A DNA stretch of 8,831 nucleotides from a virus (IMGVR_UViG_3300029878_000286:1-8831), one strand, 5' to 3'. Counted from the stretch's first letter, positions 1-5,764 are shown. The notes: generated from the sequence alone by a model not told the origin. A program made the numbers and translations.

Positions 1-333
1 CTAACGGATAGAACCATCAGGATATAAGTACACGCCACCCTCTAGATACATTGGCTCACCATCTTCAACTGCAATATCTTGATAAAGTTCAGCCAGTTCA
101 TTAGATTCATTTTTTACAAGATTATATGTATCAACATCATACCCAAGGATTTTTAACTCATCATCTGAGGTTGCTCCTTGTTTTTGCTTAAGCGCAACAA
201 TATCAAAAATCCACTTTTTGCCATCTTTAACGTAGTACGCCCCAGAATCATAACCACGATCGTCAAGTACTTTTTCAAATCCCATCGATAATGCTTTTTT
301 GACAGTATGTTTTTTTACGGTAATGATAGCCAT
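1..333 (-). CDS. Hypothetical acidic protein, 110 aa, no family recognised; possibly accessory cargo
   Basis: Complete minus-strand ORF: ATG at 333-331, stop TAG at 3-1 (reverse complement of cta at the window start). Weak AG-rich patch upstream (aagagat). The locus is visibly AT-rich compared with the core genes to the right. The translation is rich in D/E and has no hydrophobic segment. I do not recognise the family. Confidence 0.5.
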   Translation of the reverse strand: MAIITVKKHTVKKALSMGFEKVLDDRGYDSGAYYVKDGKKWIFDIVALKQKQGATSDDELKILGYDVDTYNLVKNESNELAELYQDIAVEDGEPMYLEGGVYLYPDGSIR

Positions 334-441
334 GTAATCTCTTAATATATTGAATAAAAGTGAACTTATATACTGATAAAAGTTTACTCTGACGCAATTA
401 ACTCAGCTAGTGGAGAATGATGTTATTTTTGCACCAGTAGA

Positions 442-1458
442 TCACACTTCTAGCGTTGCGAGGGGGTTGAATCTCAGAGCCGTCTCAAGATGATCGGGTG
501 CTAAATGGGCATAGCGCATAGTCATTTTTATATCGTGATGTCCGAGGATTTTTTGCAAAGCAAGGATATTTCCACCCGACATCATGAAGTGCGCCGCAAA
601 CGTATGGCGCAGAACGTGTGTCAGTTGACCGCGAGGGAGCACGATAGACGTTTTTTCCATCACGGATAAAAATTGAAAATAGCAGTCTGTAAAGAAATTG
701 AACCCATCAAGCGCCATGATCTCTTCGTAAAGCTCTTTACTGATAGGGATGCTTCTGTTTTTCTTCCCCTTCGTTCTTACAAAGGTAATTCGGTATTTGG
801 TCACTTGCGAGCGGGTAAGATTTATTGCTTCTCGCCAGCGTGCGCCTGTGCTTAGGCATATCTTGACTACCAGTGCCAGAATTGGGTCCTGACGTTTGCA
901 ATCAGCCAGCAGTTCAACAATCTGCTCATGGGTAAGCCATGCCATCTCTTTTTCTGCGATGGTGAATTTTCGCATGTTCTCCAGTGGGTTCGGATACGAC
1001 CATTCGCCCAGGCGGGATAGTTCGCTAAAAACACTACTTAGATAGCTTTGCTCCAGGTTAATGGTGACCGGGCTTGCTCCTTTCTTCCATTTCTCGCTGA
1101 AGTAGATCTCACCTGTCAGGCGTTTATCTCGATAGTGGGCAAACATTTTAGAGGTTAGATCAGTTGCAAGGGGATTGCCCAGAGCGTCAACCATCAACAG
1201 CAGTTTGTCATAGACATGCTGCCCAGCTGTCAGAGATTTACCATGTAGTTTGAACCATAGCTCAATCACGTCTTTCAATGTCCGACGATCCACTGATTCG
1301 CCCAGCCAGGGCTTTGCTTCGGTTTCTTCCATCGTGTGACGCTCAAAAGCCAGAGCTTCGCCTTTGGTGGCGAATTGTTTACGCACACGACGTCCACTAC
1401 GTCCGGCGGGGTAACATTCGCAAAGCCATTTTCCTGTGGTGAGTTTTCGTACTGCCAT
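442..1458 (-). CDS. int: Tyrosine recombinase / phage integrase of the P2-186 family (338 aa)
   Basis: In-frame ATG at 1458-1456 preceded by ggaggg (minus strand); stop TGA at 444-442. The ORF track starts 26 codons upstream at a non-ATG codon. The N-terminus (MAVRKLTTGKW...RKQFATKGEALAFERH) resembles the arm-binding domain of P2/186 Int as I recall it. The C-terminal part carries a tyrosine-recombinase catalytic signature (R...HxLRHT...Y, here ...LTHVLRHTFAAHF...MRYAHL). Confidence 0.9.
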   Translation of the reverse strand: MAVRKLTTGKWLCECYPAGRSGRRVRKQFATKGEALAFERHTMEETEAKPWLGESVDRRTLKDVIELWFKLHGKSLTAGQHVYDKLLLMVDALGNPLATDLTSKMFAHYRDKRLTGEIYFSEKWKKGASPVTINLEQSYLSSVFSELSRLGEWSYPNPLENMRKFTIAEKEMAWLTHEQIVELLADCKRQDPILALVVKICLSTGARWREAINLTRSQVTKYRITFVRTKGKKNRSIPISKELYEEIMALDGFNFFTDCYFQFLSVMEKTSIVLPRGQLTHVLRHTFAAHFMMSGGNILALQKILGHHDIKMTMRYAHLAPDHLETALRFNPLATLEV

Positions 1459-4124: not shown

Positions 4125-4351
4125 TGGCTGATGCAATGGATCTCGTACAGCAGCGCGTTGAAGAAGAACGCCAACGCCATATCCGTGCTGCCCGTGCCAA
4201 AACGCCGGGCGTGTCCCGCGTGCTTTGCGTTGAGTGTGAAGCGCCAATTCCGCCAGCACGCCGCCGTGCCATTCCTGGAGTGCAGCTTTGCATTACCTGC
4301 CAGGAAATCGCAGAGCTGAAAGGCAAACATTACAACGGAGGTGCTGTATGA
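4124..4351 (+). CDS. TraR/DksA-family C4 zinc-finger protein (75 aa)
   Basis: ATG at 4124 with aggaga 7 nt upstream. The translation has CxxC-(17)-CxxC (CVEC...CITC), the spacing typical of the DksA/TraR zinc finger. Small TraR-like ORFs occur in the early regions of P2-like and lambdoid phages. Confidence 0.7.
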   Translation: MADAMDLVQQRVEEERQRHIRAARAKTPGVSRVLCVECEAPIPPARRRAIPGVQLCITCQEIAELKGKHYNGGAV

Positions 4352-5220
4352 GCACCATCCTGAAATGGGCGGGTAATAAAACCGCCATTATGTCCGAACT
4401 GAAAAAATACCTTCCTGCTGGCCCGCGACTGGTTGAACCTTTCGCGGGTTCTTGTGCTGTGATGATGGCGACGGATTACCCCAGCTATCTGGTTGCGGAT
4501 ATTAATCCTGATTTAATCAACCTCTATAAAAAGATTGCCGCTGATTGCGAAGCGTTTATATCTCGTGCCAAAGTTTTATTTGAGGAAGCAAACAGTGAGC
4601 TGGCTTATTACAACATAAGACAGGAGTTTAATTACTCAACTGAAATTACTGATTTCATGAAGGCGATATATTTCCTGTATCTCAATCGTCACGGTTACCG
4701 TGGTTTATGTCGCTATAACAAGAGCGGGTATTTCAACATTCCCTACGGTAATTATAAAAATCCGTATTTCCCTGAAAAAGAAATTCGCGCATTTGCAGAG
4801 AAAGCCCAGCGGGCAACGTTTATCTGCGCGAGCTTTGATGAAACGCTGGCGATGCTGCAGGTGGGGGATGTGGTGTATTGCGATCCGCCGTATGACGGTA
4901 CGTTTTCCGGCTACCTGGTGGGTACGGATGAAAACGTGCTGGTACTTAATCGCACTTATGCCAACCGGAGCAACGCCGAACGAGCGGCGAAAATGCAGTG
5001 GGAACGCCTGCAACGCGGCGTTGCGTCATTCTCGCTACAACTGGCAGAAGGGCGGGCAGATCTCTACACGGAAATGCCAGTGAAAGTCAGTGGCTTTAAA
5101 CAGCCGATAGATGATGCGGAATGGACCATTACGACTCTGACGCATACCGTCAGCCCGGATAACGGTTTTACGACCAGTCTGGAGCTTGAAGTGAGGATTG
5201 ATGATTTCGAAATGGAATGA
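4348..5220 (+). pseudogene. Chimeric in-frame ORF (290 aa): N-terminal about 182 aa of a Dam-family N6-adenine DNA methyltransferase fused to the C-terminal about 100 aa of P2-type tail protein D; likely a deletion scar rather than a functional gene
   Basis: ATG at 4348 overlaps the upstream stop (ATGA), with ggagg 6 nt upstream. Residues 1-182 carry Dam-like motifs: ILKWAGNK at the N-terminus, PFAGSCAV (motif I-like) and DPPY at 179-182 (nt 4882-4893). The roughly 95 residues that follow DPPY in Dam enzymes are missing. From about residue 186 (nt about 4903) the sequence ([19 protein letters not shown]...[53 protein letters not shown]...GFTTSLELEVRIDD) matches my recollection of the C-terminus of P2 gpD. 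The next gene is ogr, as it is after D in P2. Confidence 0.65.
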
Positions 5221-5529: not shown

Positions 5530-5609
5530 CGCCGCCGCCATTTTGTCGCCATCGTTAAAAAACAGTTTTTCTAACATCATGATTTTAAACAGCTTAAATT
5601 TCAGGCAAC

Positions 5610-5652
5610 AAAAAACCCATCAACCTTGAACCGAAATGGCGGGGTTGATGGG
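5610..5652 (-). terminator. Rho-independent terminator-like hairpin downstream of ybjL
   Basis: A 10-bp perfect inverted repeat, cccatcaacc (5616-5625) and ggttgatggg (5643-5652), with a 17-nt loop. On the minus strand it is followed by a 6-nt T run (plus-strand A run 5610-5615). It lies about 110 bp past the ybjL stop. Confidence 0.5.
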
Positions 5653-5764
5653 CTCCACAAAATGGGGACATCAAAGAAAAGCAGTGGCACTAATTAAGAC
5701 TGATGCCCTGCGGAAAAGTTCTGCGGTTGTGCAAAAAAATTTCATTTTCAGGGCAACTTCAGTT

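Follow-up and report, generated by a model that had tools for sequence, protein, structure and literature searches.

ORF110, an uncharacterised cargo gene between the integrase and the attachment site of a 186-type prophage remnant in rybB

In the 8,831-nucleotide viral sequence IMGVR_UViG_3300029878_000286:1-8831 (the window, that is, the whole stretch analysed), a complete open reading frame of 110 codons, here named ORF110, occupies positions 1-333 of the minus strand with its stop codon at 1-3, to the left of a P2/186-family tyrosine integrase gene (int; 442-1458, minus strand, 338 aa) that was recognised by Pfam Int_N and Phage_integrase and by the BL21 annotation. ORF110 is an uncharacterised example of an already known feature, namely accessory cargo in the slot between int and the attachment (att) site of 186/P2-type prophages. 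An earlier note, made from the sequence alone, had reported a complete, AT-rich frame for an acidic 110-aa protein left of int, and the ORF list and translation confirmed it (36.3% GC; isoelectric point, pI, 4.7). Taken as a whole, the explanation developed below appears quite probable: ORF110 would be a cargo gene in this slot and the tail of the lysogenic operon, its product would be a binding protein engaged in conflict, and the repeated motifs beside it would be chance similarities.

ORF110 is cargo of a variable slot between int and the attachment site

The occupancy of the slot was counted in 5,426 complete Escherichia coli genomes. The ORF110 cassette was found in 71 of them, including BL21(DE3) and REL606, with the 441-bp region 99.5% identical. 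All 71 copies adjoined int on one side and attL/rcdA on the other, which ruled out that ORF110 is an ordinary chromosomal gene, the outcome that the earlier note would have drawn from its unchanged presence in prophage-free genomes; the alternative raised there, that ORF110 is cargo of the same island, was borne out. Further, a cassette with an 89-aa gene filled the slot in 209 genomes, and in strain LR-27 this unrelated gene (WP_001032044.1; positions 4609-4878 of locus L015) had no family match. At least 770 genomes carried an uninterrupted junction between int and the arm-type sites; in strain TUM12357, int continues unbroken into these sites, and its last 14 codons (PSGDKVAAAVGITP and stop) come from arm-site DNA. 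Thus, the expectation that a P2-family int abuts the att site with its 3′ end held for this common allele, but not for the window, in which the ORF110 cassette intervenes.

The ORF110 and 89-aa cassettes share one insertion nucleotide, which follows int …ATL and has its other side at gtcgccac/ttg. The int C-termini differ by allele, reading ATL-EV-stop with ORF110, ATL-PTSIASF-stop with the 89-aa gene and ATL-PSGDKVAAAVGITP-stop when uninterrupted; that is, the ORF110 cassette provides the last int codons, and its right boundary lies at about position 452. Consistently, the similarity of E. coli prophages sharing this int to the window begins only at 452 or 491, and sequenced Klebsiella and Escherichia phages likewise match the window only from there on. 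The inserted ORF110 cassette measures about 480 bp, lies between int codon ~336 and the P′ arm-type Int sites, and consists of about 30 bp of 3′ flank, ORF110, a 108-bp spacer (334-441, minus strand) that belongs to the cassette, and two new int codons with a stop. As both cassettes leave the arm sites and the catalytic portion of int intact, the last 14 Int residues appear dispensable.

Atlantibacter has the same int-ORF110-attL-rcdA layout, as does a metagenomic contig with a complete-looking 186-like prophage, and a decayed version lies at the same locus in Franconibacter. Judged by their sequences, these comparisons showed that ORF110 is cargo of the prophage int-att slot, placed between the int stop and the P′ arm sites, and that the slot is variable, as prophages that are otherwise homologous have this gene, lack it or carry another one instead. 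A 2026 survey counts the int-att interval among the minor defence hotspots of P2-like prophages, with 3% of their systems located in it, and describes cargo there as atypical but mobilised with the phage (PMC13586616). ORF110 resembles this hotspot in lying exactly in the interval, which is polymorphic among similar prophages, but differs in matching no recognised defence system, so that its membership is by position only.

The closest positional counterpart is orf69 (CP69) of phage 186, which has the same slot and orientation, directly downstream of int and before the P′ arm sites of attP, lies within the leftward lysogenic operon and encodes a small protein to which no function is assigned. 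However, no convincing homology links the two: Orf69 has 83 aa with six YVGGxxxLAPDGT-type repeats and a PD40-like match (positions 1658-1909 of the phage 186 locus, L039). The ORF110 tail YLEGGVYLYPDGS (residues 92-108) resembles one Orf69 repeat unit at a BLASTP E value of ~0.1, which is a curiosity and not homology.

The prophage boundary lies in rybB, beyond ORF110

The att core was located by aligning the K-12 empty site, the left junction of E. coli B (locus L001) and the right junction of the window. This three-sequence comparison placed the attR core, AACAAAAAACCCAT (14 bp), at 5606-5619 on the plus strand. The core consists of the last 11 nt of rybB and 3 nt downstream, and it occurs once in the K-12 empty site; rybB itself, a small RNA gene, lies at 5607-5685 on the minus strand (Rfam RF00110, 105 bits; K-12 annotation). 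attL falls outside the window: the second core copy was found in E. coli B at L001 11838-11851, 149-162 bp left of window position 1, and the attL of the window copy is inferred from the 71 genomes with the identical cassette. The empty-site comparison that the earlier note had proposed thus yielded the junction and a 14-bp att duplication.

The gene orders agreed with this placement. BL21(DE3) has rcdA, 179 bp, ORF110 and int; E. coli B reads rcdA, core, arm sites, ORF110 and int; and K-12 has rcdA, rybB and ybjL with no gene in between, which matches the statement of the earlier note that this flank of ybjL carries rcdA and not ORF110. In a pattern search, the P′ arm appeared as the tandem tgccgccactt and tgtcgccattt at L001 11947-11968, on the stretch from the ORF110 stop codon to the attL core; these sites lie 32-53 bp past the stop, and the core lies ~150 bp past it. 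In the window, the same kind of search found the P arm as tandem 186-type Int arm-type sites (cgccGCCAttt and tgtcGCCAtcg) at 5533-5554 on the plus strand. Both site pairs fit the 186-type Int arm consensus tgccGCCActt (PMC3448106) and also the YAYCGCCAYTY sites of the phage 186 annotation. As the core and the arm sites lie beyond the 3′ end of ORF110, ORF110 is inside the prophage, and the expectation that the DNA left of 442 is host chromosome did not hold.

By these junctions and its gene content, the host element is a 186-type P2-family prophage in the 3′ end of rybB, known as Rybb* in E. coli B, W and Crooks. rybB is documented as an integration site of P2-like prophages, among them Rybb*B with retron Ec86 (PMC3032704), and as defence-island hotspot #29 (PMC10121019); the parts of these two sources that list the Rybb* element do so without a description of ORF110. 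The Rybb* prophages and the Felsduovirus prophages at hotspot #29 share with the window the rybB 3′-end site and the int-cI-apl-cII module. The Rybb* element of B strains carries the retron, whereas the window copy is a far shorter remnant, with dam joined to a D′ fragment.

Two observations concern the att flanks themselves. Between the attL core and the arm-type sites, the direct repeat AAAACAATAAGTT lies at L001 11871-11883 and 11890-11902, with a distance of 19 bp, and phage 186 has annotated integration host factor (IHF) and Apl sites in the corresponding region; as excisionase or IHF sites, these repeats are more plausible candidates than the motifs in 334-441. In addition, the sequence just past the attL core of a metagenomic prophage, L031 (8480-8520; gcctgaaattt…), is more like the beginning of the phage P arm than the rcdA flank of E. 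coli, which may mean tandem or remnant elements or another host flank.

The repeated motifs beside ORF110 are chance similarities

Upstream of ORF110, the spacer contains the 10-mer AAGTGAACTT at 358-367, which recurs at 2431-2440 next to the switch promoter pR and has no other copy on either window strand, and the 8-mer ATAAAAGT at 354-361 and 376-383, both exactly where the earlier note had placed them. That note took them for possible Int arm-type or Apl sites that mark attL, with host or junction DNA left of int. For this to be so, the commonest allele offers some ground, as int does adjoin arm sites there; moreover, Apl of phage 186 binds both the switch and the att region (PMC7498355), and the 10-mer is common to the spacer and the pR region at a nominal p of ~0.04.

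The frequencies of such matches were then considered. Among 162 tiles of 108 bp, 141 (87%) share an exact match of at least 10 nt with another part of the window, and the spacer also has an unrelated 11-mer match within the window. A 10-mer match to the switch region 2400-2560 alone was obtained in 4.2% of shuffles and in 3.9% of the other real tiles, with this region of ~160 bp chosen post hoc, and an 8-mer direct repeat arose in 14-19% of spacer shuffles. Neither G(C/T)CGCCA nor CCGCCA, the arm-type sequences, was found on either strand of 334-441, a region that is ~500-600 bp away from the attL core. Apl binding requires three or more adjacent operators at a spacing of 10-11 bp (PMC7498355), whereas 354-383 offers only two 8-mers, 22 bp apart. 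The Apl-like protein of this phage is weakly similar to 186 Apl, and the TTGCCA-type sites of 186 are not transferable to it. The phage 186 record places all five Apl sites and the Int arm sites on the core side of Orf69 rather than on its int side.

Conservation was evaluated with an alignment (A4) of the spacers of E. coli, Atlantibacter, the metagenomic prophage L031 and Franconibacter, which are homologous across these four lineages. The 10-mer is not conserved in the other three orthologous spacers and falls in the most variable stretch of the alignment, its coding-strand counterparts in the orthologues being AAGTTCATTT, CAGTCCA-TT and CAATTGT-TT. Two blocks of the minus strand are invariant, TCAGAGTAAACT at 381-392, which partly overlaps the second ATAAAAGT copy, and TTTTATTCAA at 350-359. 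Where prophages combine the same cI/apl genes with other cargo, the spacer is wholly absent. With the core and the arm sites lying past the ORF110 stop, no arm-type sequence in the spacer, too few repeats for Apl and no conservation of the motifs, their reading as sites marking attL is highly improbable.

A second alternative takes the 10-mer for a genuine operator-like element, such as a CI half-site, that would tie ORF110 expression to the immunity switch. GTGAAC/GTTCAC elements flank pR (GTGAAC at 2433 and 2481), AAGTnnACTT is quasi-palindromic, and 186 CI has the distal single operators FL and FR, all of which would suit such a role. However, the Atlantibacter, L031 and Franconibacter spacers do not share the 10-mer, and L031 has a different immunity region, which contains no counterpart of the 10-mer, without a matching change; moreover, one hexamer is weak evidence, and the p of ~0.04 is post hoc. 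An operator at this place is therefore very unlikely. As compared here, the 10-mer and the 8-mer repeats are shown to be non-significant, and they are best taken as chance similarities in AT-rich DNA and not as att or switch sites.

ORF110 is a selected gene, probably expressed at the end of the lysogenic operon

Pairwise dN/dS (the ratio of nonsynonymous to synonymous substitution rates) was 0.08-0.24 across six orthologues, a substitution pattern that shows ORF110 to be a real gene under purifying selection. A spurious or non-coding frame was ruled out by the same values. A Shine-Dalgarno sequence, AAGAGA, was read at 338-343 of the minus strand, 4 nt 5′ of the ATG, and AAGAG(G) is kept at the equivalent position in the Atlantibacter, Franconibacter and Providencia orthologues. 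The product is identical to WP_000974872.1 of E. coli B strains, where the gene bears the locus tag ECD_RS04380, and is called a hypothetical protein in the BL21(DE3) annotation. GC content was 29.6% in the spacer, 47.1% in int and 51.1% in ybjL, and the protein is divided in charge, with a pI of 9.65 for residues 1-55 and of 4.05 for residues 56-110.

ORF110 is co-oriented with cI, a 63-aa gene and int. On the minus strand of the spacer, the promoter scan returned no sigma-70 promoter at the tool threshold, and hand-picked candidates, e.g., TTATCA-17-TATTCA, were poor; no terminator-like structure was found on that strand either (terminator scan; RNA fold z = -0.6). On the int/ORF110 strand of the P′ arm and att core, a 9-bp hairpin followed by a U-run was found (-9 kcal/mol, z = -2.0). 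This hairpin, CCCGUUUACAUAAAUGGG-U6, is formed as AACCCGUUU-ACAU-AAAUGGGUU and then the U-run, and lies 150 bp downstream of ORF110 on the minus strand (L001 11836-11885, ~115-165 bp left of the window). The phage would thus carry its own terminator, which overlaps the crossover core; at the other end, attR restores the native rybB terminator.

ORF110 would thus most likely be without a strong promoter of its own and be the last gene of a leftward, pL-driven lysogenic operon, cI-63-aa gene-int-ORF110, translated from its own Shine-Dalgarno sequence, with the transcript ending at the hairpin and U-run of the P′ arm and att core. The operon layout is drawn by analogy with the annotated phage 186 record, and on this basis ORF110 is probably expressed in the lysogen as the end of the cI-int operon. 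Plus-strand promoter-like hexamers were also seen at 299-327 and 323-351, within or just upstream of the ORF110 5′ end; these hexamers (TTGACA-17-AATGAT, 10 of 12 matches) are antisense and point into int, and they may only mirror the AT-rich sequence.

ORF110 belongs to a two-module protein family

Close homologues of ORF110 (n = 29) occur in Enterobacterales only, and the family reaches about 30% identity; profile searches added about 120 cluster representatives, including Pseudomonas and Pasteurellaceae ones, and all those named by their source are called "hypothetical". The earlier note could not place the protein in any family, and the database searches agreed, with no significant match in Pfam, NCBIfam, PHROGs or PADLOC. 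When 64 family members were scanned with Pfam at E values up to 10, no family recurred, the ArdC_N match of one member (E = 0.024) being noise. The only PADLOC match was ZorA against a PIN_8 protein, P0136 (E = 0.008, not significant), and PADLOC and Pfam scans of the fusion partners gave only PIN_8, IF2_N and eukaryotic AP2 repeats. A related-loci search with a narrow alignment returned four loci. No carrier of ORF110 was found in the sequenced phage and plasmid collections, in which the lone "phage" match was a Salmonella chromosome contig, and a literature search by the protein accession found no mention. The profile and structure searches suggested earlier were likewise without a significant family or solved fold: AlphaFold models had no significant fold match in PDB or BFVD, and PDB sequence profiles gave no match to ORF110.

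Alignments of the family showed a two-module make-up, with a basic N-domain of ~65 residues and an acidic C-tail of ~35 residues. The N-domain (residues ~8-75) also occurs as stand-alone proteins of 70-90 aa and in tandem in proteins of ~300 aa. The C-tail (residues ~76-110), LYxDLxVEDGEPVYLxxGMYLxPDGSI, also ends the PIN_8 (phrog_9788) protein P0136, which has 456 aa, and several proteins with unrelated, unannotated N-domains (P0111, P0122, P0144, P0146 and P0140), a distribution that suggests a portable module. The invariant positions of the family, L48, Y65, W41, I42 and Y70, are hydrophobic or aromatic and not catalytic. Scattered Foldseek matches to Hjc, EcoRV, NucS and R2 RLE (E > 1) had pointed to a PD-(D/E)xK fold; an active nuclease of this type was rejected, as the would-be catalytic residues D25, D37 and K39 vary across the family.

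A weak likeness to AP2/ERF domains was noticed between G-x-Y-F-x-K-x-x-K-K-W-I…LG…Y-D of ORF110 and YxGVxWxKxxRKWxAxI…LGxF…AYD of AP2, but the predicted secondary structure of ORF110 departs after the hairpin. This likeness bears on the proposal that ORF110 is a DNA-binding accessory of recombination or regulation that would work with Int at att and whose AP2-like N-domain would be akin to integrase arm-binding domains. Such a role would accord with the basic N-domain, with the recurrence of the family near att sites and integrases, and with the match of the family profile to a multi-AP2 protein (hmmsearch E = 3e-4; hhalign against AP2 repeats, P = 6e-4). However, the hhalign probability was 29%, none of the 64 family members had a Pfam AP2 match, no AP2-like fold match was obtained, and most prophages with the same int are without ORF110, which is therefore not needed for recombination. 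We consider an accessory role of this kind quite unlikely.

The genomic company of the family suggests a role in conflict

Relatives of ORF110 were found in diverse mobile-element regions. The Providencia relative lies in a lambdoid prophage, with int/HNH on one side and the element end on the other; Salmonella and Kluyvera relatives lie beside tRNA-SeC at the edge of islands like Salmonella pathogenicity island 3 (SPI-3), together with RhuM, DUF4942, Rap1a and SymE; one relative is within an AbiE-RhuM-ORF-deaminase island and another in an island adjoining a P4-type D5 primase gene. A Pseudomonas relative is the outermost gene of an island carrying Pycsar, and in a lambdoid prophage, a relative stands beside a T5orf172 gene, between the genes of a DnaB-family replication helicase and the Q antiterminator. 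Overall, the neighbours of the family in these variable regions include AbiE, RhuM, McrBC, HNH, SNIPE/T5orf172, Pycsar and SymE. As no neighbour is constant across the contexts, ORF110 appears to act alone; for the same reason, a two-gene toxin-antitoxin partnership was ruled out.

From its two-module, non-catalytic make-up, the ORF110 protein probably works by binding a partner, and, to judge by the neighbours, it may take part in conflict between phage and host or between phages. Two forms of such a role were weighed. As a stand-alone anti-phage defence or superinfection-exclusion protein made by the lysogen, ORF110 would fit a slot that is reported as a minor defence hotspot (PMC13586616), its co-orientation with the lysogenic operon, the Pycsar, AbiE, McrBC, HNH and T5orf172 genes adjoining its relatives, and the presence of the C-tail on a PIN_8 nuclease-like protein. 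Yet ORF110 has no PADLOC match and neither catalytic nor membrane features. In addition, the broad phage sensitivity of E. coli B speaks against a strong, wide-ranging defence. Such a defence role is thus possible but doubtful.

As an anti-defence protein, either an anti-restriction DNA mimic or an inhibitor of an immune system, ORF110 would instead aid the establishment of the phage. The small size, the acidic C-terminal half and the nature of a phage-borne single gene with variable neighbours are compatible with this role, and ArdA and Ocr share with ORF110 that it is small, net acidic and borne by a mobile element. However, neither sequence nor fold similarity to ArdA, Ocr or other known inhibitors was found, only the C-terminal half is acidic, the basic N-terminal half being unlike a DNA mimic, and the end of a lysogenic operon is atypical for early anti-defence genes. 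An anti-defence role is accordingly unlikely, and the guess of the earlier note, which had read an anti-restriction or immunity-type protein from the acidity, received no positive support.

Several points weigh against ORF110 as a conflict-related binding protein at the tail of the operon. PADLOC gave no match for ORF110 and nine relatives, so that no known defence or anti-defence model fits, and the confidence of the AlphaFold models is moderate (predicted local distance difference test, pLDDT, ~72). The neighbours change from locus to locus, which makes for loose guilt by association, and a Mannheimia relative lies among housekeeping genes. Finally, the two spacer blocks invariant in four lineages are not accounted for by this reading, and a weak promoter may exist inside the spacer.

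Other features of the window

Between int and cI, a 63-aa gene of the YdcA family with a signal-peptide-like N-terminus lies at 1645-1836 on the minus strand (phrog_6000, NF007463). In the metagenomic prophage L031, this interval holds a gene for a 324-aa protein with weak coiled-coil-type matches. With different genes between cI and int in the two elements, the cI-int interval is a second variable slot.

The 186-type CI repressor gene was assigned to 1852-2421 of the minus strand by Pfam Phage_CI_repr and Phage_CI_C. Rightward of it, the window carries the Cox/Apl-like gene, cII, a dam::D′ fusion, ogr, rybB and ybjL; the switch genes of the 186 type, CI with the CI_C domain, Cox/Apl-like and CII, were thus present as judged by Pfam, PHROG and annotations in related genomes. 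The elements GTGAAC, TTCAC and GTTCAC (2433-2438, 2454-2458 and 2481-2486) bracket the pR -35/-10 hexamers, TTGACG-17-TATGTT at 2446-2474, and may serve this immunity type as CI operator half-sites.

The dam::D′ frame (4288-5220, plus strand) opens with a DNA adenine methylase and closes with the C-terminus of tail protein D. The breakpoint lies near 4913, where identity to the E. coli B prophage ends, and one large deletion apparently took the genes for replication, the retron and morphogenesis, so that a remnant of ~5.6 kb is left.

Meaning of the ORF110 cassette

With the prophage boundary in rybB, beyond ORF110, a gene "outside" int is no longer an anomaly. The slot that it occupies is also used by phage 186, in an interval recently listed as a minor defence hotspot, and it is cleanly defined; two unrelated cassettes entered it at one nucleotide. 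None of this would surprise a phage specialist, and ORF110 is a candidate for functional screening rather than a discovery. A bolder proposal, which is held tentatively, is that ORF110 founds an undescribed two-module family of mobile elements, spanning Enterobacterales, Pseudomonas and Pasteurellaceae, whose tail would be a portable partner-binding or sensing module and whose members would be new single-gene players of defence or counter-defence spread via the int-att slot of 186-type prophages. The C-tail that ORF110 has in common with PIN_8-type proteins may be a portable interaction module, and the family, which is conserved and unannotated, is present in BL21 and REL606 and thus directly testable.

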